Shown: positions 8,996 to 53,936, numbered from the stretch's first letter. The stretch is DNA of 64,000 nt from Candidatus Latescibacterota bacterium (GCA_965204375.1 OZ241986.1:4732686-4796685), one strand, 5' to 3'. Program-made: numbers and translations. The notes: generated by a model not told the origin, from the letters alone.

Positions 8996-11395
8996 TTATT
9001 CATATCGCAACGCTGTGGCTGGGTCGGTCAGGGCTGCGCGAATCGCCTGGGTGCTTACTGTCATGATCGCGATTGCCATTGTCAGCAATCCGCTCAATAT
9101 AAAGACCAACGCGCCCAGGTCTATGCGATACGCGAATCCCGCCAACCATTCGTTCATGACCCAATAGGCCAGCGGAAATGCGATCAGGTTGGCCAGGAGT
9201 ACCAGAATTACAAATTCCCGCGAGAGCAGGCGTATGATATTGGGCACGGATGCGCCCAGGGTCTTGCGGATGCCAATTTCTTTGGTGCGCTGTTCTGCTG
9301 TAAATGCCGCCAGGCCAAACAGGCCCAGGCACGCGATTACAATCGCCAGTCCGGCAAATACGGTTATAAGTGTTCCTATCCGTTGTTCAGCCAGATAATA
9401 TCGCGCCAGGTTTTCGTCTAAAAAACGATAATAAAACGGCTTTTCGGGAATGTATTTCCGCCATATTTCACCGATATATTTAAGCGTTTCGTCAATATCC
9501 TGGCCGCGAATTTTTAGTGCTATCACGTTGAACTTGGGTTGCCACATCGCGATCGCCACGGGCCGAATGACTTCGTGTAGCGACCGGTTGTGAAAATCTT
9601 TTACCACGCCGATCACAACGCCCTTCTCCCGGTTATCCGCGGCCCATCCAAATTCCTTTCCAAGCGGGTCGGTCCATCCCAATCGCTTCACGGCAGTTTC
9701 GTTCAGGATAAACGCCTGAGATGTATCGGTTGTTACGGCCAGCGAAAAATTGCGACCCGCTGTGAGTTCCAGATTATAGGTGTCTAAAAAAGCTTCATCC
9801 ACGCCCAGGACACGCATCCGCCAGTCTTCACCTCCCCTGCCTTCGGGAAATACCCTGTCCAGTTGTCCCCCATATCTCATCGAAGAATGCGATGCCGATG
9901 CTTTCAAAATGTTTGGGTGCTTCAAAAATTCATTCTTGATGTTCAAATAATCATCGGTCAATCGCCGGTCTGTCGCAAATAGCCAGGTCATGACCATGAG
10001 ATCTTTATCAAATCCCAGATTCTTATTCTGCACGTAATTCAATTGCTGGTACACCGTGTATGTACCCGCGATTAAGAATGTCGAGATCGCAAATTGAAAT
10101 ACCACGAGGATCTGTCGCAGTCGGCCGCTTCTGTTACTCGAGACAAGCGTACCTTTCAGTACTGTTACGGGCCGAAAACTGGATAGAAATAGCGCAGGAT
10201 ATCCTCCGGCGAGTACGCTTACCAGCACGGTTAAAGCAAATAGTCCGGCAATCGCATACCACAGGGTCTGTCCTTCAAGCGCGATTGTTTTTTGGGCGAA
10301 GTTATTCAGGAGGGGGAGTGAAATTTTCACAATAATTAGCGACAATATCCCGGCCAGCAGTGCGGTTAAAAATGTTTCTCCCAGAAATTGTCGAATCAAT
10401 TGGATGCGATAGGCTCCCACTACCTTCCGCAACCCAACTTCGCGTGCCCGTCGCGCTGAGCGCGCTGTTGATAGGTTCATAAAGTTGATGCACGCAATCA
10501 GTAAAATAAATATTCCGATGATCGCAAACAGGTACACATATGTGATGTCGCTATAAGATGAAATGCCATAATCCACTTTGGAATACAGATACATGCGCTC
10601 TAAAGGCTGCAAAAAATAGGTGCTCTTTTTGACGATCTCATCGCCCATGTATCGCGCCATGAATTCAGGCAATTTTGCTTCGAGTGCTTTCGCATCTGCG
10701 CCTTCTCGCAATAAGATGTAATTGTTTGCTGGTCGCCAGGTTGAATCTACCGCCCAGTTTTCAAATACGTTCCGCGTCCAACGGGTATTTACCGTTGCAC
10801 ATACAATGTCAAATTGCAGGGTTGAATGTCGAGGCACGTTTTTCAGCACCCCGGTAATCGTATATACCCCACCCATATACCGATCATCGACGGTGAGTAC
10901 TTTTCCTATTGGGTCGTCATTCCCAAAAAATCGTTGCGCGGTTGTCTCTGTCACCAGGATGGAAAGCGGTTCTTTGAGTACTGTCGCGCGATCTCCCTTT
11001 ACCAGTTCAAAATCGAAGACTTCCAAAAAATCGGGATCCGTCAAACAGAACCGCTGATTGAATTTGCGGTCTTTATACGTGGTCCAGCTATAGTCCGGCA
11101 TATATCGTACGACTGTTTCGATTTCTGAATAATCTTTTTTTAGCGCGGGTCCCGCTGCGCCCGATGTGCCAAATCCCATGTCACGGGTGCCGTCATCGTT
11201 GCGCATCTCGCGGAGCAATTTGTAGATCCGATCACTCTTTGTGTGAAACCGATCCACACGAAATTCATCGTGAATAAATAATCCGATCAGAACACAACAA
11301 GCCACGCCTACCGATAATCCCAGTACGTTGATCAGGGAGTATCCTTTGTGGCGCATCAAATTGCGCAGGGCGATTTTCAGATAGTTTTGGAGCAT
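8996..11395 (-). CDS. MacB/FtsX-type ABC transporter permease, internally duplicated (two FtsX modules)
   Basis: 799 aa. N-terminus MLQNYLKIALRNLMRHK plus a TM helix. First FtsX module ACINFMNLSTARSARRAREVGLRKVVGA. Second module CLGLFGLAAFTAEQRTKEIGIRKTLGAS. C-terminus TDPATALRYE. Confidence 0.85.
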   Translation of the reverse strand: MLQNYLKIALRNLMRHKGYSLINVLGLSVGVACCVLIGLFIHDEFRVDRFHTKSDRIYKLLREMRNDDGTRDMGFGTSGAAGPALKKDYSEIETVVRYMPDYSWTTYKDRKFNQRFCLTDPDFLEVFDFELVKGDRATVLKEPLSILVTETTAQRFFGNDDPIGKVLTVDDRYMGGVYTITGVLKNVPRHSTLQFDIVCATVNTRWTRNVFENWAVDSTWRPANNYILLREGADAKALEAKLPEFMARYMGDEIVKKSTYFLQPLERMYLYSKVDYGISSYSDITYVYLFAIIGIFILLIACINFMNLSTARSARRAREVGLRKVVGAYRIQLIRQFLGETFLTALLAGILSLIIVKISLPLLNNFAQKTIALEGQTLWYAIAGLFALTVLVSVLAGGYPALFLSSFRPVTVLKGTLVSSNRSGRLRQILVVFQFAISTFLIAGTYTVYQQLNYVQNKNLGFDKDLMVMTWLFATDRRLTDDYLNIKNEFLKHPNILKASASHSSMRYGGQLDRVFPEGRGGEDWRMRVLGVDEAFLDTYNLELTAGRNFSLAVTTDTSQAFILNETAVKRLGWTDPLGKEFGWAADNREKGVVIGVVKDFHNRSLHEVIRPVAIAMWQPKFNVIALKIRGQDIDETLKYIGEIWRKYIPEKPFYYRFLDENLARYYLAEQRIGTLITVFAGLAIVIACLGLFGLAAFTAEQRTKEIGIRKTLGASVPNIIRLLSREFVILVLLANLIAFPLAYWVMNEWLAGFAYRIDLGALVFILSGLLTMAIAIMTVSTQAIRAALTDPATALRYE

Positions 11396-11402: not shown

Positions 11403-11999
11403 TTAAATCAGACAATGCGCCACTGCGTCTCTGTACGTTTCGAGCGCTGGGGTTTCCAGGTTCTTCACCTTGGCCAGATCATCCCATTTCCTGAGGTGTA
11501 CGGCATTCTGGTAGTAAGGATTGCTTTCGAACTCGGTCCTTTCCCGATCTGACATGAGGCCTCCTTGCAGTTGGAAACTATGCTTAGAGGCTTCGGAAAG
11601 GGTGTTGTAGTAGGTCGAATCCGTGGTGCAGATGTATCGCTTGGCCGGAACGTGAAGTTTCACCGGTTCGGTCACCGCCTCGATAAAAAAGGGTGCTATG
11701 TACGCGGCGCCCACTTCTTCGTGGAGAAAGTCCTGGGTGTGGAAATCTGCGTTTTCTGCGTGTTCGTCCATCAGAAAATGGCCGATATCGTGCAATAGTG
11801 CGGCAGTTATCTGAATCGCGTCTCCATTGGCGAGCTGGGCCAGATTGGCGCACTGGAGCGCGTGTTCGAGTTGCGTTACGACTTCGTCGTAGTAGGACTG
11901 GCCCCTCGCTTCCATGTAGGCGAACAGGGCATCTATTTTTTTTTCTGGCCTGCCTTCGGCCAATTGGTTCGCGAGTGTTGGATCGACGCGTTCCTTCAT
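11403..11999 (-). CDS. HD-domain protein, PhnZ-like (phosphonate-degradation HD oxygenase family)
   Basis: 198 aa. QLEHALQCANLAQ, AALLHDIGHF, HEEVGAAYI, HVPAKRYI and LSEASKHSFQLQGGLM line up with the conserved blocks I recall from PhnZ. Confidence 0.55.
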   Translation of the reverse strand: MKERVDPTLANQLAEGRPEKKIDALFAYMEARGQSYYDEVVTQLEHALQCANLAQLANGDAIQITAALLHDIGHFLMDEHAENADFHTQDFLHEEVGAAYIAPFFIEAVTEPVKLHVPAKRYICTTDSTYYNTLSEASKHSFQLQGGLMSDRERTEFESNPYYQNAVHLRKWDDLAKVKNLETPALETYRDAVAHCLI

Positions 12000-12052: not shown

Positions 12053-12727
12053 TTACAACTGTTCATCCCGGTCTAACCATCCGTCTGATAGATGTACGAT
12101 GCGGTCTCCGTAAGCGGCGTTTTTCTCGGAGTGCGTGCATTGGACAATGGTTACGCCTTCGGCATTCAGGTGTTTGAACAGGGTCATGATCCGCTCGCCT
12201 TCTGCCGAGTTTAAGTTGCCGGTTGGTTCGTCGGCCAGGATCAATTTTGGTTGGGTGATCAATGCCCGGGCTATGCCCACCTGTTGTTGTTGTCCGCCGG
12301 ATAACTGGTTGGGGAATAGTCGCTTTTTTGCCACGATGTTGAAGCGGTCCAGCATTTCGGCGATGCGGCCTTTGCGCTCGGCACCTTTTACTTTTTGATA
12401 TAAGAGGGGTGTTTCCAAATTTTCGGAGACGGTTAGTTCGTCGATTAGATGGTAACTTTGGAATACAAATCCGATGTGGTCTCGGTGCAACTCGGTCAAT
12501 GCGCGTTCGTCCAGTTTGTGAACTGCGCGGTTGTAAAAATGATACTCTCCATTCGAGGCGGTGTCCAGCATGCCCAGGATGTGCAATAGGGTTGATTTGC
12601 CGGCTCCAGAGGGTCCCATGATGGATACAAATTCCCCTTCGCGGATTTGTAGGTCTATTCGCCGGAGTACGAATGTTTTTACGATGCCGTTTTCGTAGTA
12701 TTTTTCGATGTTTTTTAGTTCGATCAT
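12053..12727 (-). CDS. ABC transporter ATP-binding protein (MacB/LolD-type)
   Basis: 224 aa. Walker A GPSGAGKST, signature LSGGQQQQ, Walker B ILADEPTGNL. Confidence 0.9.
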   Translation of the reverse strand: MIELKNIEKYYENGIVKTFVLRRIDLQIREGEFVSIMGPSGAGKSTLLHILGMLDTASNGEYHFYNRAVHKLDERALTELHRDHIGFVFQSYHLIDELTVSENLETPLLYQKVKGAERKGRIAEMLDRFNIVAKKRLFPNQLSGGQQQQVGIARALITQPKLILADEPTGNLNSAEGERIMTLFKHLNAEGVTIVQCTHSEKNAAYGDRIVHLSDGWLDRDEQL

Positions 12728-12773: not shown

Positions 12774-12819
12774 CTTCACACTTCACACTTCACACTTCAC
12801 ACTTCACACTTCACACTTC
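12774..12819. repeat. tandem heptamer repeat (CTTCACA x6 plus a partial copy; GAAGTGT on the minus strand)
   Basis: Read directly: cttcaca repeated six times immediately after the stop codon of ORF 12820-13077. Confidence 0.9.
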
Positions 12820-13077
12820 CTATGCGCGTCGTTCGAAAAGGATGGATACCTCGTGTTCAGATGGCTCGCCAATTTCTACGAGCGACCAGTCTGCGTCGTA
12901 GTTTTCCACGATCCGCTTCAAACACATGACTCTCTGTTCGTGGGGTTCGGCGTGTTCCTCCCAGGCGAATAGTTCCATGCGGTAATCGTATTTTCTGCTT
13001 TTGCCGTTTACCACCACGGTTACTTCCACGGTGTCTTCGGCGTCTAAAGGCGGCAATTTGATTGAGATTTTGGGCAT
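12820..13077 (-). CDS. small hypothetical protein (85 aa) inside the ABC operon
   Basis: ORF with GGAGAA 6 nt upstream of the ATG. It lies between two ABC ATPase genes on the same strand. No motif recognised. Confidence 0.45.
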   Translation of the reverse strand: MPKISIKLPPLDAEDTVEVTVVVNGKSRKYDYRMELFAWEEHAEPHEQRVMCLKRIVENYDADWSLVEIGEPSEHEVSILFERRA

Positions 13078-13104: not shown

Positions 13105-13203
13105 CTACTCATACCGCAGGGCGTCAACGGGATTGGATCGCGCAGCGCGAATGGCCTGGAGGCTTACGGTACACAGGGCGATTTTGAGATAGTTTTTGAG
13201 CAT
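13105..13203 (-). pseudogene. collapsed permease relic: 32-codon in-frame fusion of a permease N-terminus and C-terminus
   Basis: It translates to MLKNYLKIAL-CTVSLQAIRAARSNPVDALRYE*. The first 10 residues match the N-terminus of 8996-11395 (MLQNYLKIAL). The last 21 match the paralog C-termini (TVSMQAIRAARSNPIDALRYE). Confidence 0.7.
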
Positions 13204-13215: not shown

Positions 13216-13893
13216 CTATCCCCTGATGTTTTCTGTGACGACATGACCGTCGAACAGGTGGATGATGCGATGCGCGTATCCCGCGTCGTGCGAATTGTGG
13301 GTCACCATGACGATTGTGGTGCCGTTTTTGTTCAGTTCGGTCAACAGATCCATGACCTCGTTGCCGTTTGCCGAGTCGAGGTTACCCGTTGGCTCGTCTG
13401 CAAGGATGATGTTGGGGTTTGCTATGACGGCTCTGGCCACGGCTACGCGCTGCTGCTGACCGCCGGATAGTTGTTGCGGGAAATGCTTTTCGCGGTGTTT
13501 GATGCCCATGTATTCGAGGGATTCATCCAGGCGCTGTTTGCGCTCGCTGGTTGGTAAGCCCAGGTATAACAGAGGCAGTTCCACGTTTTCGGCGACGGTC
13601 AGTTCGTCGATGAGGTTGAAACTTTGAAATACAAAGCCGATATTTGACTTGCGGGTGTTGGCTCTTTGCCGTTCGGTGTGTTTGGAGACTTCTTCTTCGT
13701 TCAGAAAGTATTCCCCACCGCTCGGATTGTCCAGCAGGCCGAGTACGTTCAAGAGTGTGGATTTGCCACATCCAGACGGTCCCATGATGGCGACAAATTC
13801 GCCTTCGTCAATATCTACGTTGACATTGTTCAGAGCCGTGGTTTCCACTTCTTCGGTGGTATAGACTTTCTGGAGGTTGACGGTTTTGATCAT
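13216..13893 (-). CDS. ABC transporter ATP-binding protein (MacB/LolD-type)
   Basis: Walker A GPSGCGKST, signature LSGGQQQR, Walker B ILADEPTGNLD. Start moved to MIKTVNLQKVY (ATG 13893; AAGAGGAG upstream). Confidence 0.9.
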   Translation of the reverse strand: MIKTVNLQKVYTTEEVETTALNNVNVDIDEGEFVAIMGPSGCGKSTLLNVLGLLDNPSGGEYFLNEEEVSKHTERQRANTRKSNIGFVFQSFNLIDELTVAENVELPLLYLGLPTSERKQRLDESLEYMGIKHREKHFPQQLSGGQQQRVAVARAVIANPNIILADEPTGNLDSANGNEVMDLLTELNKNGTTIVMVTHNSHDAGYAHRIIHLFDGHVVTENIRG

Positions 13894-13964: not shown

Positions 13965-16346
13965 CTATTCATACCGCAGCGATTCAACGGGATTGGCCAT
14001 AGCGACTTTGACCGCTTGATAGCTCACGGTGATACAGGCAATAATCAGAGACAAGACGCCAGCAAAAACAAAGATGCGCCACCCCATAGATGTGTGGTAC
14101 GCAAAATCGTTTAACCAGTCGTTCATAAAGTGATAGGCCAGCGGAGCGGCCAGTGCAAAGGCAACGACAACCAGCCTGATGAACTCTTTGGAAAGCAAAA
14201 TGACGAGATTGGGGATGGATGCGCCGAGGACTTTTCTAATGCCGATTTCCTTGGTGCGCTGTTCGGCGGTATAGGACGCCAGGCCGAACAGCCCCAGGCA
14301 AGAAATAAAAATGGCGAAAATGGCAAAAAAAGTAGCCAGCGTGCCCATCGTGCTCTCGTTGCGATACATCCTTTCAAACTGTTCGTCCTGAAAAGAAAAC
14401 TCAAAAGGACGGTCCGCATTGAATTTCTTGGATGCCCTCTCGATACCTGCAATAGCCTCAGCCGTTTGTCCCCCGGCAATACGCACAAATAAAAACTCGG
14501 TACGGGTGGGACTCAGAAGAATAATCAGCGGTTCGATAGCCGTGTACAGGGATTGAAAATGGAAATTTTTAACCACGCCAATAATTGGACCTTCGCGACC
14601 AAACCGCAGACGGGTGCCAACCGGGTTTTCCATGCCCATAGCCCGAGCCATTTCTTCATTCACAATAAAACTTCTGAGATCCCCGGGAAAATCTCTGGAA
14701 AATTCGCGCCCGTGAACAAGCTCCATGTGCAGGGTATTGACCACATCGTAGTTGGCCTGTAACCTGTGAAAAATATGTTCTGAATTGGGGTCTCTCCCCT
14801 CCCACATCGCATTTGTTCCGGTACTCGTCACCCTGAGCGGATTGTGTCCGGTACTGGTCACGCCGACAATGCCCGGCTGTTGCAAAAGTTCCTGTCTGAA
14901 AGCCTCATACTGTCTCTTAGCTGCACCCTCCAACCGCATATACACCAGATTATCGCGGTCAATTCCCAGATCTTTGTTTCGCATATACGCAATCTGCTCA
15001 TAAACCGTCAGCGTGCCGATAATGAGCAAAATAGAAAGACCAAATTGGAACACCACCAGCACCCGGCGCAACTGACTCGAACCCGACCCCGGTGTAAACG
15101 TACCGCGCAAAACAATGACGGGATTAAAATTGGAAAGATAAAAAGCGGGATAGCTTCCCGCGAGCACTCCGGTTACAATCGCAATACCAAAAAAAATGAG
15201 AAGAATCTCAATGCTGAAAAGATCGGTCGTGAGCGTCTGATTGATCAAGTCGCTAAACGACGGCAAAACCAGAATGACCATGATCAGCGCCAGAATGGCA
15301 GCGAACATGGTCATCATAAGCGATTCGCCCATAAACTGCCCAATCAGAATGGTTTTATGCGCCCCGACAGCCTTGCGAATCCCAATTTCTCGAGCGCGTT
15401 GCGTAGAACGCGCAGTCGATAGATTCATAAAGTTGATACTCGCAATCAGGATGATGAACGCGGCCACGACAATAAACATCTGCACATAGTCAATCCGACC
15501 ACCGACCAGTTTGCCATTCCTGTAGTCGGAATACAGATGCATATCCAGATAGGGCTGCAAAAAAGCATCGCTTGTGACCGTATCATCATTCTCCTTAATG
15601 ATATTTTTGATCTTGGCATTGAATTGATCGATATTGACATCCTTTTGCAACTGAACGTATAGCCGAAGGTGATTGACCGTCCACCGATAAAAACCGCGTT
15701 TATTGGCCAAATAAGATGCCATTGGCAAAATACAGTCATATCGCTGCGTCGAATTTACGGGCATGTTTTCATAAACCCCAGCCACCTTAAAACTTTTGTT
15801 ATCGTATTGCACCAGCGCGTGCGTATTATTCACCACAAAGATCTGTCCCATCGCGGTACTCCTCCAATCCTCTCCAAAATACTTCTCGGCCAGTCGCTCT
15901 GAGATGGCGATATTATCCGGTTCCGCAAGCGCGGTTTCGGGATCGCCCAAGATGAGGGGAAAGGTGAAAATCTTAAAAAAGGCCGGTCCAGCGTGATATC
16001 CGCTCTCCCGAAAAGTCTGTTCCCCATGCGTCAAATACATGGGCTGATTCCAGGTCACAAGCACGGTCTCGGTAACCTCTGGATATCGCTCTTCCAGCAG
16101 TTTGGCACTCGGATGGGGTATCGAAGACAGCGTCGAGATCTTATTCATGCCGTGATGATGCCGCATGAAGCGGTAGATTCGGTCGCCATTCACATGGAAT
16201 TGATCGTAGCTGAGTTCGTGGGCGATCCACATAAAAATTAAAAAACTACAGGTCAGGCCCACGGAAAGACCCGCAATATTGATTATAGAATGGGTTTTTT
16301 GCCCCAAAAAATTGCGGACCGCGATTTTGAAATAATTCTTAAACAT
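13965..16346 (-). CDS. MacB/FtsX-type ABC transporter permease, internally duplicated
   Basis: 793 aa. MFKNYFKIAVRNFLGQK plus a TM helix. SINFMNLSTARSTQRAREIGIRKAVGA and CLGLFGLASYTAEQRTKEIGIRKVLGAS. C-terminus NPVESLRYE. Confidence 0.85.
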   Translation of the reverse strand: MFKNYFKIAVRNFLGQKTHSIINIAGLSVGLTCSFLIFMWIAHELSYDQFHVNGDRIYRFMRHHHGMNKISTLSSIPHPSAKLLEERYPEVTETVLVTWNQPMYLTHGEQTFRESGYHAGPAFFKIFTFPLILGDPETALAEPDNIAISERLAEKYFGEDWRSTAMGQIFVVNNTHALVQYDNKSFKVAGVYENMPVNSTQRYDCILPMASYLANKRGFYRWTVNHLRLYVQLQKDVNIDQFNAKIKNIIKENDDTVTSDAFLQPYLDMHLYSDYRNGKLVGGRIDYVQMFIVVAAFIILIASINFMNLSTARSTQRAREIGIRKAVGAHKTILIGQFMGESLMMTMFAAILALIMVILVLPSFSDLINQTLTTDLFSIEILLIFFGIAIVTGVLAGSYPAFYLSNFNPVIVLRGTFTPGSGSSQLRRVLVVFQFGLSILLIIGTLTVYEQIAYMRNKDLGIDRDNLVYMRLEGAAKRQYEAFRQELLQQPGIVGVTSTGHNPLRVTSTGTNAMWEGRDPNSEHIFHRLQANYDVVNTLHMELVHGREFSRDFPGDLRSFIVNEEMARAMGMENPVGTRLRFGREGPIIGVVKNFHFQSLYTAIEPLIILLSPTRTEFLFVRIAGGQTAEAIAGIERASKKFNADRPFEFSFQDEQFERMYRNESTMGTLATFFAIFAIFISCLGLFGLASYTAEQRTKEIGIRKVLGASIPNLVILLSKEFIRLVVVAFALAAPLAYHFMNDWLNDFAYHTSMGWRIFVFAGVLSLIIACITVSYQAVKVAMANPVESLRYE

Positions 16347-20435: not shown

Positions 20436-20499
20436 AAACAATCAAGTACTGAAATAACAACATGTTATGAAATATTGCTTAAAATTGATAGGTTGAATA

Positions 20500-44612: not shown

Positions 44613-44852
44613 ATGAGAGATAAAATGCACAAAATCTCCCTAACAGAAGCAGAAACCTGCCTTGCTGAACTGGTTAAAGAAGCGACAAGTGGCGAAGAAG
44701 TCATTATTACTCAGACAGATGGCTCTGTAGTTAAGCTTGTGGCAGTCTCGTCCAAACAACCAGTTCCAAAATTCGGCAGTGCAAAAGGGCTTGTTAAAAT
44801 GTCAGATGATTTTGACGAACCTCTTGAAGATTTCGAGGATTATGCCCTGTGA
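44613..44852 (+). CDS. small antitoxin-type protein (Phd/YefM-like or VapB-like)
   Basis: 79 aa. ISLTEAETCLAELVKEATSGEEVIITQ followed by an acidic tail FGSAKGLVKMSDDFDEPLEDFEDY. GTGA overlap with the downstream PIN gene. The start could instead be ATG 44625. Confidence 0.55.
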   Translation: MRDKMHKISLTEAETCLAELVKEATSGEEVIITQTDGSVVKLVAVSSKQPVPKFGSAKGLVKMSDDFDEPLEDFEDYAL

Positions 44853-45250: not shown

Positions 45251-47665
45251 TCACTCATCTCGCAACGCATCCACGGGATTGCGGCGCGCGGCTTTCAGTG
45301 TTTGAAAATTCACTGTCAACAACGCGACTAACAGGGTCAGTATCCCGGCGAGGCCAAAAACGCCTATGCTCAGTTCAATGCGATATGCGAAGTTGGTCAA
45401 CCATTGATTCATCATCCAGTAGGCAACAGGATAGGCGATGATGTTGGCGACCAGTAGTAACTTGATAAAATCTCTGGAAAACAACCACATCACATGATGG
45501 ACAGAAGCCCCCAGCACTTTCCGAATCCCAATCTCCTTTGTCCGCCGCGCAACCGCCAGCGACGCCAGTCCGAATAATCCCAAACACGAAAGCAGGACAG
45601 CCACGAGAGCCGAATGGCTCAATACGCGAAACCAATAGACCTCATTGGCATACTGTTGATTCAGGTTTTCATCCAGAAACGAGAGTTCAAAAGGCATATT
45701 GGGTGCAACTTTTTCCCAGGTGTTTTTGAGCATCCCAATCGTTTCAAAAATTTGGTCTGAGCGCAGGCGAACCAGCAAAGATGGATAAGTTCTGTATTTT
45801 TCCATCACCAATGCCACCGGCTCAATTGGTCGATGCAAAGATTCTATGTGAAAATCGCGCACCACACCAATAATAATGGGGTCTTCAACGCCTTCCCGGC
45901 TATAGCCTGCATTCCAACCAAAACCCGTCAGCGTTTCTCCTACCGGATTTTCAAAGAATTGCTTTGCCAGCGTTTCGTTGATCAAGATTGCTTTAGTCAT
46001 ATCTGACGGATGATCTTTTGAAAAATCTCGGCCCTCGACCAGTGAAATTTCTAACGTGGATAGATAATCGACATCTACGCCAATCACCCTGAAGGTAATC
46101 TTTCTGCCATCAGGCAATTTATAAGGGTACGTGGAATAACCCATTACTGAGGGTGGACGATCCGTAATTGTAACACCCGCAATGCGTGAGTCGTTTACAA
46201 TGGCTTCCTTATAGGGTTTTGCCAACTGTCGACGACCTGTCTGAATAACAACGACCTGCTCTTTGTTAAAGCCCAGGTTTTTGTTACGCACATAATCCTG
46301 CTGTTGAATCATCACACCTGTGCCAATGATGAGGGCTATGGATGTCGCATATTGCAGAATGATTAACGTGCGCGTCAAAAAGTTGCGCCCACCAAGGCGC
46401 GCTTCGCCTTTTATGGCTAAAACAGGTTGAAACCGCGATAAGACCAGAGCGGGATAACTGCCAGCGATTAGTCCGACAATGCCGAGCAGGAGCAGCAATA
46501 CCCACCAATCGCCAAAATAAGCGAGGGTCAATTTTTGATGTACAAATCCGTTGAATACGGGCAAAAGGATTTCGGCAAGTGCAGTGCCCACGAGTAAGCC
46601 CAAAAAGCACAACACCAGTGCTTCGCTCCAGAACTGCTGAATAATCTGACCTCGCTTGGCGCCTACCACTTTGCGCAATCCCACTTCTTTTGCCCGCCCG
46701 GAAGATTCTGCGACCGATAGGGTAATAAAGTTGCTGCACGCAATGAGCAAGACCAGCCATGCAAGCCCCCACAAGATATAAACCCCTGTTGGATTGCCCT
46801 GCGGTCCATAGCGATTGGGAATGTCTGTATTCCAGTACACATCCGTCAGGGGTTGAAGAATAAAGTTAAATGGTTCGCTTTTGGATCTATCTTCCCGCAA
46901 CTTTTCTTTTTTTGACCAATGGTTGAGATCGTCAATTACGCGAGAAGCATTTGTTTCATCTATTTGCACAAAAATCCATGCACAGGCACCACGGCTTCTT
47001 GCAAGAGGGAAACCTTTTTCAGCTTTTGTCGAAACCAACACATCGAATTGAAGACTCGATGTTGTAGGCACATCTGCCATAACACCTGTCACGACAAATT
47101 GCTTATTGTTTGCGGTCAGTGCTTGCCCTATTAGCGCGTTGTAATCCTGTACATCTCCAAAAAATTTGTGTGCAATGGTTTCAGTAATCACCATGCCATC
47201 TGGTCGGGTAAGTACAGTCTCTGGATTCCCGACCAGCAGTGGAAACGTGAACATTTGAAAGAAATTTGTGCTCACAATCCCAATGTCCTGTGGGAATGTC
47301 TTTTCATCCCTTGTGATTTTCGCCCACCTACTCTCCCATCCACTACTGCGAATCCGCATAAATGCACAGGCTTGTTCAACACCAGGCATTTCATCTTTTA
47401 ACGCATCGACAACCCAAAGCAGATGCACAGTATCCCAGAGATTAAATGGAATCGCCTTCCCGTCCGGTTGAAGTCTTTGCGCTACCAACCGAAACATCTG
47501 ATCGTGGTTCTCGTGAAACTGATCGCGTGACCATTCGTGTTTGACAAACAGAGCCATCAAGATACAGCAGGCAAGTCCCAGCCCGAGGCCGAACACATTG
47601 ATGAATGTGTAGAGCTTCTTTCGCATTAAATTGCGAATCGCAACGGTTAGATAATTTTTGATCAT
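45251..47665 (-). CDS. MacB/FtsX-type ABC transporter permease, internally duplicated
   Basis: Start at MIKNYLTVAIRNLMRKKLY (ATG 47665). CSNFITLSVAESSGRAKEVGLRKVVGA and CLGLFGLASLAVARRTKEIGIRKVLGAS. C-terminus NPVDALRDE. Confidence 0.85.
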   Translation of the reverse strand: MIKNYLTVAIRNLMRKKLYTFINVFGLGLGLACCILMALFVKHEWSRDQFHENHDQMFRLVAQRLQPDGKAIPFNLWDTVHLLWVVDALKDEMPGVEQACAFMRIRSSGWESRWAKITRDEKTFPQDIGIVSTNFFQMFTFPLLVGNPETVLTRPDGMVITETIAHKFFGDVQDYNALIGQALTANNKQFVVTGVMADVPTTSSLQFDVLVSTKAEKGFPLARSRGACAWIFVQIDETNASRVIDDLNHWSKKEKLREDRSKSEPFNFILQPLTDVYWNTDIPNRYGPQGNPTGVYILWGLAWLVLLIACSNFITLSVAESSGRAKEVGLRKVVGAKRGQIIQQFWSEALVLCFLGLLVGTALAEILLPVFNGFVHQKLTLAYFGDWWVLLLLLGIVGLIAGSYPALVLSRFQPVLAIKGEARLGGRNFLTRTLIILQYATSIALIIGTGVMIQQQDYVRNKNLGFNKEQVVVIQTGRRQLAKPYKEAIVNDSRIAGVTITDRPPSVMGYSTYPYKLPDGRKITFRVIGVDVDYLSTLEISLVEGRDFSKDHPSDMTKAILINETLAKQFFENPVGETLTGFGWNAGYSREGVEDPIIIGVVRDFHIESLHRPIEPVALVMEKYRTYPSLLVRLRSDQIFETIGMLKNTWEKVAPNMPFELSFLDENLNQQYANEVYWFRVLSHSALVAVLLSCLGLFGLASLAVARRTKEIGIRKVLGASVHHVMWLFSRDFIKLLLVANIIAYPVAYWMMNQWLTNFAYRIELSIGVFGLAGILTLLVALLTVNFQTLKAARRNPVDALRDE

Positions 47666-49360
47666 GAGAATTTCCTCCCATTGTTCACTATTCATCTCTC
47701 AGGGAATCCGCCGGATTTGCGCGTGCGGCTTTGAGGGTTTGGGCGGTGACCGTTGTGAGCACGACGAGGAACATGGCGACGCTGCCGAGTAAGAAGGCAC
47801 CAATACCCAATTCAGTGCGGTAGGCGAATATTTGCAACCATTGATTGGTCGCGTAATAGGCGATTGGGAATGCGATGAGGCTTGATAGGGCAATGTAGAG
47901 GACAAATTCTCGTGAGAGCAGGGACAAGATTTGCGTTTGTGATGCGCCCAATACTTTGCGAATGCCAATTTCTTTGGTGCGTCGCGCAGCGGCCAGTGCT
48001 GCGAGTCCGAATGCGCCGAGTGCGGCGATGAAGATGGCGAATCCCGTGGCGTATTGGATCATCTGGTTCCAGTATTCTTCCCTTTGGTATTGGTTGTTTA
48101 CGCCTTCATTGAGAAATGAGAAGTCGAATGTCTGGTTGGGTGCGACCTTTTCCCACTGTTTTTTGATAAATGCGATGGTGCCCGACACATTTTCGGGTTG
48201 AATGCGAACCAGCAGGCGATTATGCATTGGAAAGATGTACAGAATAGCGGGCACAATTTTGTGATGCAGGGAGCGAAAATGGAAATCCCGGACAACGCCG
48301 ATGATGGTCCTGTCTCGTCCAGCGTTGATTGTTTTGCCAATGGGATCTTCTATGCCGAGTGTTTTGACCAGTGACTCGTTGACAATGACCGCTTCTTCTT
48401 TATCGGTTGGAAATTCTTTAGAAAATGCGCGACCTGTGACGAGTTTGATGTCGAGTGTTTTGAACAGATCGTAATCTATCTGAATATTTTCAACGCGTTG
48501 CTTTGGGCTTCCTTCATAGGTTACACTGGCTCCATACTGTCCTCTGTTGTTTAATGGGTGACTGAGCCAGGTTGTGCTGATCACTGAGGGATGCGACAGC
48601 AGCAAATCCCGAAAAACATTTGGTAGGGTTTCGTTTTCTTCTTCGAGGTCATAGGTCGAGATGGCGACAACGTGTTCGGTTTGATATCCCAGGGGTTGGG
48701 TTCGCAAGTATGTGAGCTGGTTGCTCATCATCAGGGTGGTGATGAGCAAAAATATGGATAAGGCGAACTGAAAAACGATCAGTGCTTTGCCAAAGCGATT
48801 GCCCGTTTTGATTGTAAATCGGTTTGTTATGATTTGGGTTGGCTGGAATCGGGACAGGATAAAGGCGGGGTACCCTCCTGCTATGATGCCTACGAGGCTG
48901 ACAAGCAGAATGAGAAAGGCGAGTGTTGTGAAATTCATACCGTCGCCCATGGACAGGGATTTTCCAATTAAGTTGTTGAATGTTGGCAGGGCGAGTTCTG
49001 ATAGGGCGATGCCAACGATGAGTGCGATGAAGATGAGCAAGAGCGATTCGCCGATAAATTGATTTGCGATCTGTATGCGTTTTGCGCCGACGACTTTTCG
49101 CAAGCCGACTTCTCGCGCCCGCGTTGCCTGTCGTCCGAGGGTCAGGGTGATGAAGTTGACACAGGCGATAAATAGCACCAGCATTGTGATGCCAGATAAA
49201 ATGTATGAATAGACTTTTTGAACAAAGGGCCTTTGGGTAAAGGGCTGAAGTTTGAGTTGTTTTTTACTTTTTTCTCCCCACCAGAGTTTGACATATTTGG
49301 GAAATTGTTGTTCGATGCTCTTTGGGGATACATTCGGGGGGAGCATCATATACGTCGTCA

Positions 49361-50289
49361 GAAGCTGTTTTAAAATTATGGAGAAATAAAAAAAAGAGTT
49401 GAAAAAGCGTATTCATCAGTCCAAATTTAGGGTATCCAAAAACCTTAAAAAGAAAGGACATGCGATGAATACGCCAAGACAATATCCGACAAATGTCACC
49501 CAAGCGCAATGGCAACTGCTGATCCCCTTGTTGCCCAAACGCAAATGGCAAAAAGGAGGTCCCGGACGTCCACCTGCCAATTTGCGACGCGTGTTTGATG
49601 GCATCCTGTATCTGACGAAGACGGGCTGCCAATGGCGCATGCTGCCTCATACCTTTGGCTGTTGGCAAACCGTGTATGGCTATTTCAACAAATGGCGCGA
49701 GCAAGACATCTTTCAGCAGGTGCAACAAGCACTCTCACGTAGGGAGCGCAAACGGCAAGGGCGCAAGCCTGACGCATCAGCAGGCTGTATTGACAGCCAA
49801 AGTGTTAAGACAGCAACACAAGCAGACTCAAAGGGTTACGATGCGGGAAAGAAGATCAATGGACGAAAACGCCATCTGCTTGTCGATACCCTCGGACTGG
49901 TCATCAGCACCTATGTCTCACCGGCTAATCTCCAAGATCGTGATGGCCTCAAAAAGGTGCTCAATCAGTATTTTGAAACAGGCGTGACACGCTTACGCAA
50001 GCTGTGGGTTGATGGCGGATATCGCGGCGAAGACCTCAAGGAATGGGTCGCTGATAGAAAACAAACACATAAGATTGATCTTGAGGTCGTTACCCCAAAA
50101 GGGGAAGGCTTTCAAATAGTCAAACGCCGTTGGGTCATTGAACGCACCTTTGCTTGGTTATTCAATTTCCGCCGACTGTCAAAGGATTATGAACGCTTAA
50201 CGGACAACAGTGAAGCCTTTATTCACATCGGTATGATTTATCTCTTAATTAACAGACTTGCTTAAACGCCAGGGTTTTAAAACAGCTTC
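49361..50289 (+). mobile_element. IS5-family insertion sequence (IS1031-like group), 929 bp, 3-bp TCA target duplication
   Basis: Terminal inverted repeats GAAGCTGTTTTAAAA (49361-49375) and the reverse complement of 50275-50289. Flanking direct repeat TCA at 49358-49360 and 50290-50292. A single transposase ORF. Confidence 0.85.
49465..50265 (+). CDS. IS5-family DDE transposase
   Basis: N-terminal TQAQWQLLIPLLP...GRPPANLRRVFDGILYLTKTGCQWRMLP, the DUF4096-type HTH of IS5-family transposases. DDE region ...IDSQSVK...GKKINGRKRHLLVDTLGL...WVDGGY...VIERTFAWL. Start set at MNTPRQ (49465). Confidence 0.85.
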   Translation: MNTPRQYPTNVTQAQWQLLIPLLPKRKWQKGGPGRPPANLRRVFDGILYLTKTGCQWRMLPHTFGCWQTVYGYFNKWREQDIFQQVQQALSRRERKRQGRKPDASAGCIDSQSVKTATQADSKGYDAGKKINGRKRHLLVDTLGLVISTYVSPANLQDRDGLKKVLNQYFETGVTRLRKLWVDGGYRGEDLKEWVADRKQTHKIDLEVVTPKGEGFQIVKRRWVIERTFAWLFNFRRLSKDYERLTDNSEAFIHIGMIYLLINRLA

Positions 50290-51001
50290 TCAGGTAATAT
50301 ACATTCCATCGGTTAGGGGCGCGCATCCCGGGGTGAGGTTCAAATGGCAGTAGTATGTCAAATTGAAGTGTGGAGTTTTTGGGCACGTTTTTCACGATGC
50401 CCGTGATGGTGTAGTTTTGAATTTCTTGATCGAAGTACTGAATTGGAAGCACTTCTCCAACCGGGTTGGCGTTGTTGAAATACTTCTGAGCGGTTTTTTC
50501 TGTTATGAGTGCTGAATACTTGTCTTGAAGGGCCTGGGCAGGATCGCCATGAAGGATTGGAAAAGAGAAAATATCGAAGAAGTTGGGATCGGCAAATCCC
50601 ACATGTGCTTCAAAAATGCGATCTTCTGTACCAATTTTTCCCGTTAGGTACGGAGAATGATAGACACGAACTGTCTGCATTGCGGGGAATGCTTCTGCTA
50701 TTGCGGGTCCGAGGGGGTCTGGCGATACACCAGAAGCGCCGGGAGAAACCAGATAGATATTGTCGGCGTTTTCGTGAAAGGTGTCATAGGTCCATTCGTT
50801 TTGGACAAAGAGGTAGGTGAGGATGCAGAAGGCGAGGCCGATGGCAATGCCGATGATGTTAATAGCAGAGTAGATGCGGTGTCTGGCGAGGTTGCGGATC
50901 GCCGTTTTCAGATAGCTACTGAATAAAGATATTTCAGTGAACATTGGTCTCTCCTGTGTATGGTGTGGCGTAAACTCTATATTTTATTTTATCAGGTGCG
51001 A

Positions 51002-51580
51002 TCAGCCCGCCCAGCCTCCCAGTTGTTTTTCCAATGCGCGTTTTAGCTGATGGCGTCCGCGGTGGAGCCAGATTTTCACAGAGCCGAGGGGTGCTTGCAT
51101 TTCCCATACGATTTCGCGGTAGGACAGTTCTTTTATGTAGCGAAGCCACATTGCGCGTTGTTGTGTCTGGGGCAATGTGCGCAGGCCCTGTGCTATGAGT
51201 TGATGGCGTTCTTTTTTTATGATGCTATCTTCTGGTGTTGTCAGAGTAATTGGTTCGGGCATTTGTCGCGCTGCTGTTTCCATACCATCTTTTCGGGACA
51301 GCCGGGACCGGAGGTGTGACCGCCCGACGTTGATGGCAATGCGCGTTAGCCATGTTGTGAATGCCGATTTGCCGCGAAACTGGCGCAGGCTCTGAAAGAC
51401 TTTCATGAATACCACCTGCATCAGGTCTTCGGTTTCCTCGCGGTCCTGCACATATCGCCCGACAATGGCGCGTACGCGGCTCTGGTGCAAATAGTAGAGT
51501 TTGCCAAACGCGCTTTTGTCGCCGGCTTTTATCATGTGGACCAATTGCACATCGTTTTCTATGTCTGATTGTTTATTCAT
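51002..51580 (-). CDS. ECF-type sigma-70 family RNA polymerase sigma factor
   Basis: 192 aa. Region 2 (EDLMQVVFMKVFQSLRQFRGKSAFTTWLTRIAINV) and region 4 (LPQTQQRAMWLRYIKELSYREIVWEMQAPLGSVKIWLHRGRHQLK). Its start overlaps the upstream permease stop by 8 nt (ATGAATAA). Confidence 0.85.
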   Translation of the reverse strand: MNKQSDIENDVQLVHMIKAGDKSAFGKLYYLHQSRVRAIVGRYVQDREETEDLMQVVFMKVFQSLRQFRGKSAFTTWLTRIAINVGRSHLRSRLSRKDGMETAARQMPEPITLTTPEDSIIKKERHQLIAQGLRTLPQTQQRAMWLRYIKELSYREIVWEMQAPLGSVKIWLHRGRHQLKRALEKQLGGWAG

Positions 51581-53936
51581 ATCGCAATGCCTCCACGGGG
51601 TTCATTTTTGCAGCTTTTATGGCTTGCAGGCTTACTGTTCCGATTACGACCAATAGGGTCAATACACCGCCCAGCGCGAATGCTCCGATGCCCAGTTCAA
51701 TTCGATACGCGAAGTCCGATAGCCATTTGCTCATTGCCCAATAGGCGACGGGCCAGGCGAGTACGTTTGCAATGCCGACCAGCAGAACGAATTCGCGCGA
51801 TAGCAAACGCACGACGTTTGTGACGCTGGCGCCCAATATTTTGCGAATGCCAATTTCTTTGGTGCGCCGGGTCACGGCGAGTGCTGTCAATCCAAATGCG
51901 CCCAGACACGCGATAAAAATGGCAAATAGGGTTCCGTATCCGATCATGCGATGCCAGCGCTCTTCGGTTCGGTATTGGCGATCTATGCCTTCGTCGAGAA
52001 ATGAATATCGGAAGCCAGGGGATTGTGTTACGGCTTCCCATTGCGCTTCCATAAATGTTAGTGTGCCGGGGATATCGTCGGCACGCACCCGAACCAGCAA
52101 TCGGCTAAATTGATGTTCTGGATCGCATTTCAGGAGTGCGGGGCCAATTTTGTGGTGGAGAGAGCGAAAATGAAAATCGTTTACCACGCCGATTACTGTC
52201 ATATCATCAAAAAATTTCAGTGTTTTTCCGAGGGGTGGTCCCGGTCCCAGTTGTTTGGCCAGGGTTTGGTTGATGATTACAGATGCGGTGGGGTCTGTCA
52301 CAAGGTCCCGTGAATAATTTCGTCCTTCGATCAATTTGATGTCGAGCGTTGGCACAAAGTCGTAATCGACAAAGAAGACCTCCACGCCTGTTAAGGTTGT
52401 TCCTTCATGTACCACAACCCCGCGCGACTGGTATCCATTCCGCATCATGTGATATATTGGGGTCACGCCGAGAATTGCGTGATGGGATAAGAGGGCGTCT
52501 CGATAGGTTTCAATGCCTTTTGGTCCCAGGCCTCGCAGCTTGCTGAGGCGACTGACGACAATCAAATGTTCGCTGTCAAATCCCAGGGGTTTGGTCCGCA
52601 AATAGTCGAGTTGAGAGGTCATGATGAGGGCGCTGATGACGAGGACCGCAGACAGCGCGATCTGGAAGACCACGAGAAACTGGCTGAATAATCCCGCACT
52701 GACAATTTTCAATCTGCCTTTGAGTACGTGGATTGGCATAAATCCGGATAGGACAAAGGCCGGATAGGTACCTGCGAGCAGGCCGACAATTAGAGCCAGA
52801 CCTATGAGCGAGGCAAATGCCAGACCATCCAGATGTGCAACTATGGATAGTTTTTGCGCCATGAGGTTGTTGAACAATGGCATTAAAAGTTCTGATAGTG
52901 CGAGTCCGATTACAAATGCTATGAGGCTCAAGAGCACGGATTCTGTGAGGAATTGCACGATGACCTGGGGTTTGTGTGCGCCAACGACTTTGCGGATGCC
53001 GATTTCCCGCGCCCGAGAAGCCGACCGTCCCAGGGCGAGGGTCATAAAGTTCACGCATGCGACAAAGAGTACCAGGGCTGTAATGCACAACAGGATGTAG
53101 CTGTATGCCGGGTCAGTGGCGGGTTCGGGTGCGCGGATATTTGGACTGAAATGCACATCGGTAAGGGGTTGCAATTTCATCTCCTGCTTTTCTCCCATGA
53201 TGGGCCAGGACCAGTTTAGAAAACGCGGAAATAATTTTTCTATGTCTTCGGGGCGGACCTGATTGTGGAGTAAGACGTAAATGCTGGTGTCTGTTGTGTA
53301 ATTCCACGAGTTGAGCGCGTCTTCGACATTCTCATAGGACTGGATGCAGCCGAATTGAATGCTGGATGTTTCGGGGGTATCTTTCACGATGCCCGTAATT
53401 AGAACCTGATGGATTTTTGAGTTTCTTGTGAAAGAGATCGTTTTCCCCATTGGGTCGGTGTTGCCGAAGATTTTTTGCGCGGCTGTTTCTGATATGACAA
53501 TGGCGTCTTTGTGGTCCAGTGCTGTTGCGGGGTCGCCTTTTATCAGGGGAAATGTGAAGATATCCCAGAAACCCGGATCGACATAAATAACGCGCTCTTG
53601 AAATGAATGGTCGCCATATTGGAATGTGCGAGAAGTGGTATTGATTCTCACGACCTGCTGCATTTGTGTGGGGAATGCTTCTGCCAATACAGGACCAAGA
53701 GGACCCGGCATATAAGCCGAGGCATCACTGCCTTCTCCCACTTCTCCTTTATTGTAAACGCGATAAATCCGATCTGCTTTTTCGTGGAATGCGTCGAAGG
53801 ACCATTCGTGTCGTACGTACAGGAAGGTCAAGATGCAAAACGCGATCCCGATTGCCAGGCCGGTGATGTTGATCGCTGAATACACTTTGTAGCGGACGAG
53901 GTTGCGGTACGCCACGGTCAGGTAATTGCGGAACAT
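51573..53936 (-). CDS. MacB/FtsX-type ABC transporter permease, internally duplicated
   Basis: 787 aa. MFRNYLTVAYRNLVRYK. CVNFMTLALGRSASRAREIGIRKVVGA and CLGAFGLTALAVTRRTKEIGIRKILGAS. C-terminus NPVEALRYE. Confidence 0.85.
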   Translation of the reverse strand: MFRNYLTVAYRNLVRYKVYSAINITGLAIGIAFCILTFLYVRHEWSFDAFHEKADRIYRVYNKGEVGEGSDASAYMPGPLGPVLAEAFPTQMQQVVRINTTSRTFQYGDHSFQERVIYVDPGFWDIFTFPLIKGDPATALDHKDAIVISETAAQKIFGNTDPMGKTISFTRNSKIHQVLITGIVKDTPETSSIQFGCIQSYENVEDALNSWNYTTDTSIYVLLHNQVRPEDIEKLFPRFLNWSWPIMGEKQEMKLQPLTDVHFSPNIRAPEPATDPAYSYILLCITALVLFVACVNFMTLALGRSASRAREIGIRKVVGAHKPQVIVQFLTESVLLSLIAFVIGLALSELLMPLFNNLMAQKLSIVAHLDGLAFASLIGLALIVGLLAGTYPAFVLSGFMPIHVLKGRLKIVSAGLFSQFLVVFQIALSAVLVISALIMTSQLDYLRTKPLGFDSEHLIVVSRLSKLRGLGPKGIETYRDALLSHHAILGVTPIYHMMRNGYQSRGVVVHEGTTLTGVEVFFVDYDFVPTLDIKLIEGRNYSRDLVTDPTASVIINQTLAKQLGPGPPLGKTLKFFDDMTVIGVVNDFHFRSLHHKIGPALLKCDPEHQFSRLLVRVRADDIPGTLTFMEAQWEAVTQSPGFRYSFLDEGIDRQYRTEERWHRMIGYGTLFAIFIACLGAFGLTALAVTRRTKEIGIRKILGASVTNVVRLLSREFVLLVGIANVLAWPVAYWAMSKWLSDFAYRIELGIGAFALGGVLTLLVVIGTVSLQAIKAAKMNPVEALRYE

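Follow-up and report, generated by a model that had tools for sequence, protein, structure and literature searches.

An array of fused Type VII ABC permeases in Candidatus Latescibacterota, its two ATPases and single adaptor, and its sigma-54 promoters

Introduction

The closest described relatives of the genes considered here are MacB of MacAB-TolC, the fused permease YbbP of Escherichia coli, the darobactin exporter DarBCD and the acidobacterial duplicated orphan permeases (ADOP). The present work concerns a 64,000-nucleotide (nt) stretch of DNA from Candidatus Latescibacterota bacterium (GCA_965204375.1 OZ241986.1:4732686-4796685; this whole stretch is called the window, and positions are counted from its first letter), which carries a dense array of twelve permease genes of this kind (P1 to P12, positions 8996 to 53936). 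The array is the Latescibacterota version of a gene system conserved across the Fibrobacteres-Chlorobi-Bacteroidetes (FCB) superphylum. The explanation that we regard as reasonably probable is an inducible ATP-binding cassette (ABC) system of Type VII, in which a shared energising and adaptor module would serve a set of diversified permeases.

ADOP proteins have a full-length architecture of two MacB_PCD and two FtsX matches, form large paralogous families that mostly lack an adjacent ATPase, and are accompanied by an adjacent PadR-type regulator. The window permeases share this architecture and likewise form a large paralogous family, but the five copies tested scored 294 to 343 bits with the ADOP model TIGR03434 in comparison to its cutoff of 622.3, the match covering 6-803 of 803 model positions in P2 and P3, 5-803 in P7, and two stretches in P1 and P12. 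Membership of ADOP in the strict sense is thus ruled out, and the window proteins form a sister clade. A further difference is the core to which the arrays of the window and of its FCB relatives are tied, made up of a sigma-54 enhancer, an NtrC-type two-component system, two lineages of ATPase and an adaptor. The gaps of 18 to 24 nt between permeases leave no room for a PadR gene within the operons, although no dedicated PadR search was made. When the literature was searched for functional studies of ADOP-like permeases, the yield was no more than two descriptive mentions and one computational sigma-54 survey, and in the literature searched we found no tested function for the family and no description of a core made up of an adaptor, two ATPases, sigma-54 and an NtrC-type regulator.

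MacB works by mechanotransmission, and its major coupling helix lies between transmembrane helices (TM) 2 and 3, with a minor one at the C-terminus (PMC5985334). The window system resembles MacAB-TolC in its FtsX/MacB fold, MacA-like adaptor (16452-17810) and MacB-type ATPase domain, but MacB is a homodimer of four-helix subunits with an N-terminal fused ATPase, whereas here the permease halves are fused and the ATPases are separate; neither a fused-ATPase homodimer layout nor a TolC-like factor was found in the window. The single fused permease of YbbAP holds two ATPase monomers by means of coupling helices, which both of its halves possess (PMC12646458). The likeness to E. coli YbbAP(-TesA) extends to the pseudo-symmetric fused permease, two Porter/Sabre domains, two coupling helices and two ATPase monomers, but YbbP has ten helices, two of them linkers, in comparison to eight in the window permeases, and YbbAP, unlike the window system, is a single-copy gene system without adaptor, with one ATPase type acting as a homodimer and with TesA as partner. 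DarBCD (NF038008, NF038010, NF038007) was the next NCBIfam match of the permeases after ADOP and among the strongest for the adaptor and the ATPases, and it shares with the window a fused permease, an adaptor and a separate ATPase. The scores were 75 to 133 bits for the permeases, 195 for the adaptor, and 244 and 277 for the ATPases, in comparison to cutoffs of 700, 450 and 375, respectively. DarBCD has one permease and one ATPase type, whereas the window has multiple permeases and two ATPases, and darobactin biosynthesis genes are not present at the window.

Service of many interchangeable membrane components by one ATPase module is known from group II energy-coupling factor (ECF) transporters and from the MsiK/MsmX-type shared ATPases. 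These are importers with folds unrelated to the present proteins, and the likeness lies in the concept of sharing, which we infer for the window system.

Results and Discussion

Permease genes and their turnover

By open reading frame (ORF) listing, Pfam searches and alignment, the permease set on the minus strand consists of eleven intact genes, one copy split by an IS5-family insertion sequence (IS) and one relic of 32 codons. The features are as follows, with the supporting evidence in brackets.

8996-11395, minus strand: permease P1, singleton, 799 amino acids (aa) (Pfam, identity comparison, NCBIfam)
13105-13203, minus strand: 32-codon relic of a deleted permease gene, MLKNYLKIALCTVSLQAIRAARSNPVDALRYE, then stop (tblastn, translation)
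13965-16346, minus strand: permease P2, singleton, 793 aa (Pfam, identity comparison, NCBIfam)
17936-20362, minus strand: permease P3, group A, 808 aa (Pfam; ADOP model at full length, below cutoff; structure model closest to YbbP and MacB)
20794-23274, minus strand: permease P4, singleton, 826 aa (Pfam, identity comparison)
31901-34282, minus strand: permease P5, singleton (Pfam, identity comparison)
34301-36730, minus strand: permease P6, group A, conversion tracts in common with P3 (Pfam, identity comparison)
36753-39104, minus strand: permease P7, group B (Pfam, identity comparison)
39129-41558, minus strand: permease P8, group A (Pfam, identity comparison)
42193-44529, minus strand: permease P9, group B, without its own sigma-54 promoter (Pfam, identity comparison)
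45251-47665, minus strand: permease P10, singleton (Pfam, identity comparison)
47688-49355, minus strand: C-terminal part of permease P11 (Pfam, alignment to P9, relative L005)
49349-50301, plus strand: IS5-family insertion sequence interrupting P11 (transposase, inverted repeats, empty site in L005)
50291-50944, minus strand: N-terminal part of permease P11, group B (Pfam, alignment to P9, relative L005)
51573-53936, minus strand: permease P12, 47-48% identical to group B (Pfam, identity comparison)

The intact permeases are 778 to 826 residues long after start correction, for which four ORFs were trimmed to the conserved N-terminal motif before lengths were counted. Every copy has two MacB_PCD and two FtsX matches in Pfam, and the hydropathy profile of the permease alignment has eight transmembrane peaks, TM1 and TM5 each being followed by a domain of about 240 residues. 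By both Pfam and hydropathy, the copies thus have the FtsX unit of four helices, in which TM1 and TM2 flank a large extracytoplasmic domain. The motifs quoted in an earlier note on this DNA, made from the sequence alone, proved to be the alignment consensus, and the functional motifs are invariant in all copies. That note had also described the eleven intact genes, the split copy and the relic with their common architecture, only two ABC ATPases and one adaptor, sequence groups A and B beside singletons, and an ongoing birth and death of copies, all of which agreed with the results given here and below.

Identity is 85-90% within group A (P3, P6 and P8), 77-80% within group B (P7, P9 and P11) and 32-48% for other pairs. 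Between P3 and P6, stretches of 124, 107 and 141 nt match exactly where the background identity is 80-90%, and gene conversion explains these stretches best. No ortholog of P3 or P6 is as similar to it as the two are to each other, a sign of either conversion or a recent duplication. Group B paralogs have orthologs in other genomes that are closer to them than the paralogs in the window, and are thus old duplicates. In P11, the inserted element carries a transposase gene (49399-50265, plus strand) and inverted repeats (49349-49375 and 50275-50301), the two halves of the permease align with nucleotides 17-592 and 636-2333 of P9, and the relative L005 carries the uninterrupted site. In the relic, 10 codons from the start of a lost permease gene and 22 from its end are fused in frame. 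Permease copy number and order also vary among related genomes, and these observations show that the array undergoes ongoing gain, loss and homogenisation.

Genes of toxin-antitoxin type occupy the gaps between the permease operons, namely VapBC (44613-45241), which lies on the opposite strand and parts P9 from P10, PIN genes (24322-24738 and 31389-31826) and an HTH_37 gene (41853-42182). The whole of this gene class (24322-25439, 31389-31826, 41853-42182 and 44613-45241) includes three PIN-domain toxins, a VapB/Phd antitoxin, the HTH_37 gene and a DUF2442 gene.

Predicted fold and divergence by domain

A Foldseek search with the AlphaFold model of P3 gave the fused YbbP (9ge6, E 6e-19) as closest structure, over the whole length, followed by MacB, Spr0694-0695, LolCDE, YtrEF, BceAB and HrtBA. 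A profile search of PDB sequences matched MacB chains and the Porphyromonas periplasmic domain 3is6, and no full-length permease relative was found by it. Because of the Pfam and hydropathy architecture and the YbbP-like fold of the model, the permeases are fused, pseudo-dimeric Type VII ABC permeases. Each is a single polypeptide of two fused MacB/FtsX units with eight TM helices, two periplasmic Porter/Sabre-type domains, and cytoplasmic coupling loops between TM2 and TM3 and between TM6 and TM7, and a fused pseudo-dimer with two coupling loops would be expected to need two ATPase subunits.

Identity among the window paralogs is 60-62% in the coupling loops and 67% at the C-terminus, in comparison to 50% over the TM and cytoplasmic parts as a whole and 30% in the two periplasmic domains, so that the extracytoplasmic domains are more divergent than the membrane modules. 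The same ranking holds inside the young groups A and B. The most conserved segments, in which invariant motifs are found, are those that match the coupling elements of MacB and are predicted to contact the ATPase, and the permeases thus seem to diverge mostly where substrates or partners would bind.

The ratio of nonsynonymous to synonymous substitution rates (dN/dS) was 0.04 to 0.31 in every domain of the recent paralogs, somewhat higher in the periplasmic domains; all values were less than 0.32, so that domain-level positive selection is absent among recent paralogs, and the purifying selection indicates that all copies are maintained. A rival idea is that the majority of copies are duplicates that are redundant or in decay and persist only because they were amplified recently; the relic, the IS-split copy, the inserted toxin-antitoxin modules and the conversion tracts could be cited for it. 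With eleven intact frames, low dN/dS, invariant functional motifs, and group B paralogs that are closer to foreign orthologs than to local paralogs, we give this idea almost no weight.

ATPases and adaptor in the window and in related loci

A six-frame hidden Markov model (HMM) search of the window found exactly two MacB-type ATPase genes, named here by their nucleotide-binding domains (NBD1 and NBD2), and one adaptor gene. A small protein associated with the array, orf85, is listed with them.

12053-12727, minus strand: ATPase NBD1, distal lineage (ABC_tran; MacB/LolD-type; orthologs in 11 other loci)
12820-13077, minus strand: orf85, small array-associated protein (homologs inside arrays of other loci)
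13216-13893, minus strand: ATPase NBD2, adaptor-associated lineage (ABC_tran; MacB/LolD/DarD-like; orthologs after the adaptor gene)
16452-17810, minus strand: periplasmic adaptor, HlyD/MacA/DarC-like membrane fusion protein (HlyD_3, HlyD_D23; RND_mfp above cutoff, DarC-like below)

Only three of the twelve permeases lie in an operon with ATPases, all in the one operon that has both, and the other nine are in operons without an ATPase.

In a scan of species-representative genomes, the window was found to be 84-87% identical to three complete chromosomes of Latescibacterota metagenome-assembled genomes (MAGs; OZ242195.1, OZ220741.1 and OX638317.1), while more distant relatives (33-47% identity) came from Bacteroidota, Ignavibacteria, Aminicenantes, KSB1, Cloacimonadota and others. 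A survey by six-frame HMM annotation of 80 related loci (1.4 Mb; identified below by L numbers), taken as the best matches to one query, counted 264 fused permeases, 25 MacB-type ATPases and 13 adaptors. At least four permeases were present in 33 of the 80 loci, with up to nine in a locus of 22 kb, and 14 of 15 solitary permeases with full 10-kb flanks had no MacB-type ATPase nearby. A profile search against 1.84 billion cluster representatives returned 58,713 at E <= 1e-30, the top 150 of which were all full-length. Some full-length family members (P0014, P0018, P0022 and others among the matches in this representative library) have an extra N-terminal extension of about 73 residues.

Published arrays are similar. 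Psychroflexus torquis has a 42-kb island with ten ADOP paralogs, transposases, an addiction module and high protein abundance (PMC3914696), and Dyadobacter has 28 to 33 ADOP-like copies per genome (PMC11573002). Since the 80-locus counts and these arrays agree, dense packing and scarcity of ATPases are typical of the family. The reading in the earlier note was thus partly supported, in that a diversified set sharing ATPases fits the data, while the tandem packing, which it had thought unusual, and the low ATPase-to-permease ratio are normal for the family in the FCB group (80 loci; PMC3914696, PMC11573002). The window alone is an ordinary, well-preserved instance in a little-studied phylum.

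NBD1 and NBD2 are both intact in Walker A, Q-loop, LSGGQ, Walker B and H-loop, and are 52% identical to each other. The NBD2 type is 68-75% identical to 13 orthologs, the divergent L027 (54%) being left out, and ten NBD2-type genes, with L027 counted, stand directly after an adaptor gene. For the NBD1 type there are 11 orthologs, at 60-72% identity; these never adjoin an adaptor gene and usually stand at the far end of the array. Across phyla the mean identity of the ATPases is 67-71% within a lineage in comparison to 52% between lineages. Permeases of other phyla are 38-47% identical to the window paralogs, no closer than the window groups are among themselves, and the search for cross-phylum orthologous subfamilies of the window paralogs found none (best outside matches 38-47%). 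Fast-evolving permeases beside nearly constant ATPases are expected if few ATPases must fit many permeases. Eight residues are fixed differently in the two lineages, six of them after the Q-loop and before the signature motif, which is where ABC ATPases have their coupling helix. These residues give a hint, and only a hint, that each ATPase type may serve one half of an asymmetric permease.

The gene order that recurs in ATPase-containing loci is an adaptor, an ATPase and a number of permeases, often followed by a second ATPase. The order adaptor, NBD2, permeases, in some cases orf85, and NBD1 was seen in L006, L023, L052, L069 and L070, the last of which is the minimal unit of adaptor, NBD2, one permease and NBD1; in L058, L075 and L080 the adaptor and NBD2 are followed by four to seven permeases. 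Both ATPase types are present where both ends of the array are visible (the same five loci), with L025 as the exception. The acidic, 85-residue orf85, for which no Pfam or NCBIfam family was matched, is conserved within arrays of other phyla (L006:12460-12723, L023:12933-13181, L037:17477-17725, L063:11125-11376, L074:12461-12709, L079:9614-9856) and in some loci directly precedes the NBD1-type gene.

The counts also bear on whether every permease has a dedicated ATPase encoded elsewhere, the shortage being an artefact of one window. The ATPase count of the source organism is limited to the window, which would allow for this, but ATPases are also in deficit across the related loci (1.4 Mb), there are no more than two lineages of them, both conserved, and operons are seen repeatedly in which as many as seven permeases accompany one adaptor and one or two ATPases, so that we consider dedicated ATPases very improbable.

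Sigma-54 promoters, enhancer and regulators

The canonical sigma-54 promoter TGGCAC-N5-TTGC was found four times in the window in comparison to 0.15 expected, and an upstream element of 33 nt occurs in four exact copies in comparison to 0 expected, which bears out the co-regulation that had been proposed for the array. Each promoter is preceded by an enhancer, or upstream activating sequence (UAS).

20421-20435, minus strand: sigma-54 promoter 1, TGGCACGATTATTGC (motif search, promoter alignment)
20499-20539, minus strand: enhancer (UAS) 1, two tandem TGT-N10/11-ACA dyads (33-nt repeat, invariant 41-nt block, dyad plus promoter pattern)
23367-23381, minus strand: sigma-54 promoter 2, monocistronic P4 (motif search)
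23445-23485, minus strand: enhancer 2 (33-nt repeat, 41-nt block, dyad plus promoter pattern)
41644-41658, minus strand: sigma-54 promoter 3, operon P8-P7-P6-P5 (motif search, upstream regions)
41722-41762, minus strand: enhancer 3 (33-nt repeat, 41-nt block, dyad plus promoter pattern)
55502-55516, minus strand: sigma-54 promoter 4 (motif search)
55579-55619, minus strand: enhancer 4 (33-nt repeat, 41-nt block, dyad plus promoter pattern)

The distance from enhancer to -24 element is 63 to 65 nt in all four cassettes. The -24 GG and -12 GC elements have canonical spacing. When ten promoters (the window and four related MAG genomes, L001-L005) were aligned, no variation was seen in the promoter with these elements, in the enhancer block of 41 nt or in a CATAAC..TGT box that lies in the middle. 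The enhancer is made of two TGT-N10/11-ACA dyads, about 21 bp apart in the window and with centres 20 to 23 bp apart over all loci, the consensus being TGTCCG-N4-CGGACA or TGTATCAAAACCGAACA. The composite of dyad pair and sigma-54 promoter occurred 15 times in the sequences examined in comparison to none in reversed or shuffled controls, and dyad pairs alone 80 times in comparison to 8 to 18; 29 dyad pairs in 25 loci lie directly upstream of genes of the system. A metagenome scan with the enhancer returned three short contigs of a close relative, with the enhancer 5' of a permease or adaptor gene, and added no regulator. A computational survey of 2025 also found sigma-54 promoters enriched upstream of FtsX-like (COG0577) permeases in Bacteroidia and Opitutia (PMC12316311).

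In seven loci from Bacteroidota, Ignavibacteria and others, a regulator of the type REC-Sigma54_activat-HTH_8 and a membrane histidine kinase are encoded divergently to the adaptor gene, the intergenic region beside these NtrC-type regulators carries the same type of enhancer, and when the families of 141 flanking ORFs were counted, sigma-54 activators were one of the commonest. Because the same enhancer lies beside NtrC-type regulators in other phyla, that of the window is assigned to an orthologous regulator encoded elsewhere; from these comparisons it is most likely bound by an NtrC-type response regulator (REC, sigma-54 AAA+ domain and HTH_8) paired with a membrane histidine kinase.

The window also holds an operon (26533-29223, minus strand) for an alpha/beta hydrolase, a LytS/YehU-type kinase and a LytTR regulator, syntenic in L002 and L005. 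Its response regulator (26533-27246; kinase 27243-28355) could be the one that binds the enhancer, which can also be read as two 9-bp direct repeats (TCGGACACT) with a 12-bp spacer, the classical LytTR layout (PMC4064291), and the synteny of the two-component system would suit this. We find the proposal improbable, given that the same enhancer stands beside NtrC-type regulators in other phyla, that the site is a true palindrome (TGTCCGAAAACGGACA) in several loci and as such fits HTH_8 dimers, and that the region upstream of the operon itself bears a different repeat, ACCGTTYAT; moreover, a LytTR regulator could not open a sigma-54 promoter alone because it has no AAA+ domain. The repeat in question is a 20-bp tandem repeat (29308-29352) with two ACCGTTYAT boxes, partly conserved in relatives, and may be an autoregulatory LytTR site.

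Promoter 1 is followed by operon 1, in the order P3, adaptor, P2, NBD2, relic, orf85, NBD1, a PhnZ-like gene and P1. In the operon of promoter 3 the intergenic gaps are 18 to 24 nt, and operon 4 has the order TlpA-like gene, P12, ECF sigma factor (here for extracytoplasmic function), P11 with its IS, and P10. A scan of operon 1 for sigma-70 promoters and terminators gave no enrichment over shuffles, and an Rfam scan of the window gave no match. Strong hairpins at 20536-20600 and 23482-23550 (both minus strand; z-scores -6.5 and -4.8), with U-runs after them, lie immediately 5' of enhancers 1 and 2, the first forming a terminator-like hairpin between P4 and enhancer 1. The box AATAATGGTTCTACGGCTAATACA precedes both, so that the whole terminator-enhancer-promoter cassette seems to have been duplicated. 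Two genes of operon 4 are other than transporter genes.

51002-51580, minus strand: ECF sigma factor, overlapping the P12 stop by 8 nt (Pfam/NCBIfam, synteny)
53981-55420, minus strand: periplasmic TlpA/ResA-like thiol-disulfide oxidoreductase that has a CGPC motif and heads operon 4 (Pfam/NCBIfam, synteny)

The TlpA-like protein, of 479 residues, has a signal anchor and a further domain of about 330 residues; its gene lies between sigma-54 promoter 4 and P12 and is absent at the same promoter in L001 and L005. The ECF sigma gene between permeases is kept in L001 and L005, and its place in a sigma-54 operon suggests a cascade from sigma-54 to the ECF factor. No anti-sigma gene is visible beside it.

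Coupling of a Type VII ABC transporter to a kinase recalls BceAB-BceRS, in which such a transporter is genetically coupled to an intramembrane-sensing kinase. Some or all of the permeases might then be mainly sensors or co-sensors for a histidine kinase, as BceAB is for BceS, since Type VII ABC transporters are known as co-sensors, the kinase adjoins the system in other phyla, its N-terminus, read by eye, is similar in having two TM helices and almost no external loop, and the ECF sigma gene embedded between permeases is conserved in relatives. Twelve co-sensors for one kinase are not parsimonious, however, the kinase is not in the window, and the permeases have the two-domain MacB/YbbP layout and not the single-domain, ten-helix Bce layout; the extracellular domain of BceB is a single one, and the system has a regulator of OmpR type that depends on sigma-70, in comparison to the NtrC type and sigma-54 here. 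A mainly sensory role seems to us rather remote.

Proposed mode of action

In the shared-module explanation, the two ATPases and the MacA-like adaptor would form a common energising and exit module, into which the twelve permeases would plug as alternatives to one another for the recognition of substrates or partners, their periplasmic domains being where they mainly differ. The four sigma-54 promoters, each downstream of an identical enhancer, would drive expression under an NtrC-type regulator and kinase, whose genes must in that case lie beyond the window. The system would probably serve, on induction, to clear the periplasm or the inner membrane's outer leaflet of compounds such as peptides, toxins or lipophilic molecules, and would do so by mechanotransmission.

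Several points weigh against this explanation. No OEP match indicating a TolC-like outer-membrane factor was obtained among the window ORFs scanned, although the genome may encode one elsewhere, and OEP accounted for three of the 141 flanking ORFs in the neighbour census of related loci. Neither rpoN nor the activator gene is in the window, and a search of the window and of L001-L005 for an enhancer-binding protein with a GAFTGA motif gave none. P9 lacks a sigma-54 promoter and P10 lies downstream of the IS insertion, and both may be expressed differently. The ATPase count covers the 64-kb window and not the whole source genome, the 80 loci, as best matches to one query, are not a random sample, and the AlphaFold model of P3 is of moderate confidence (predicted local distance difference test, pLDDT, 70; predicted template modelling score, pTM, 0.53). 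The substrate and the direction of action of this permease clade are guesses.

The scarcity of OEP is also in keeping with the proposal that the permeases are not efflux modules and are mechanotransmission engines docking different periplasmic partners, such as a hydrolase, a lipoprotein or a chaperone. FtsEX-EnvC, YbbAP-TesA and LolCDE-LolA are precedents, the diversified periplasmic domains would then correspond to different protein partners, the closest solved full-length structure, YbbP, works with a periplasmic hydrolase, most permeases are far from the single adaptor gene, and a TlpA-like periplasmic oxidoreductase heads one operon. Yet the adaptor is the conserved first gene of the core operon across phyla, as is typical of tripartite pumps, and no recurrent periplasmic partner gene stands out in the neighbour census, so that we judge partner docking to be unlikely, and the shared energising and adaptor module is retained as the better explanation.

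A wider and more doubtful proposal, though one that we consider possible, is that one modular machine, deeply conserved, exists throughout the FCB superphylum. Its core would unite a membrane kinase and an NtrC-type regulator, a conserved tandem-dyad enhancer followed by a sigma-54 promoter, a single MacA-like adaptor, and NBD1 and NBD2 as an obligate pair, perhaps as a heterodimer whose two members fit the unequal halves of the permease; this core would energise an expandable, fast-evolving library of interchangeable permease cassettes. If so, the logic of a shared module known from the ECF importers would have its counterpart in export or defence, and the arrays would be a substrate-recognition repertoire. 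The family is very large, with tens of copies per genome in some soil and aquatic Bacteroidota, and by tying its 'orphan' permeases to a small conserved core, the analysis turns a vague annotation into a testable system, in which, in cultivable relatives, a knockout of the regulator, of either ATPase or of the adaptor would be expected to shut down or cripple all of the permeases together. If confirmed, ATPase sharing would make the system an example of a combinatorial Type VII ABC machine, and we know of no earlier one. What the present analysis most usefully adds is that the ATPases form two conserved lineages, that the operons follow a conserved grammar, and that a sigma-54 enhancer, accompanied by an NtrC-type two-component system, is found across phyla.

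Other genes and repeats in and around the array

One further gene lies within operon 1.

11403-11999, minus strand: PhnZ-like HD-domain oxygenase (NCBIfam NF052439, 273 bits in comparison to a cutoff of 300)

NF052439 is a model of hydroxymethylphosphonate dioxygenase. Dioxygenases of the PhyH family are encoded at 58352-59095 and 60411-61175 (both plus strand), about 47 kb from the PhnZ-like gene, and one of them is weakly PhnY-like; a link of these genes to phosphonate catabolism is possible.

The heptamer GAAGTGT is repeated in tandem, in 6 to 10 copies, in intergenic DNA at 12774-12819 (between orf85 and NBD1), 60297-60363 and 61617-61675, and a 14-mer related to them is at 55624-55660, just upstream of enhancer 4. 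The left flank of the array (2178-5136, minus strand, and 7064-8821, plus strand) encodes an AAA/PD-(D/E)XK ATPase, a Fic-domain protein and a PcfJ-like protein, which look mobile or defence-related, and just beyond the array lies a gene for a ThsB-like TIR-domain protein, a component of Thoeris defence (56035-56571, minus strand).

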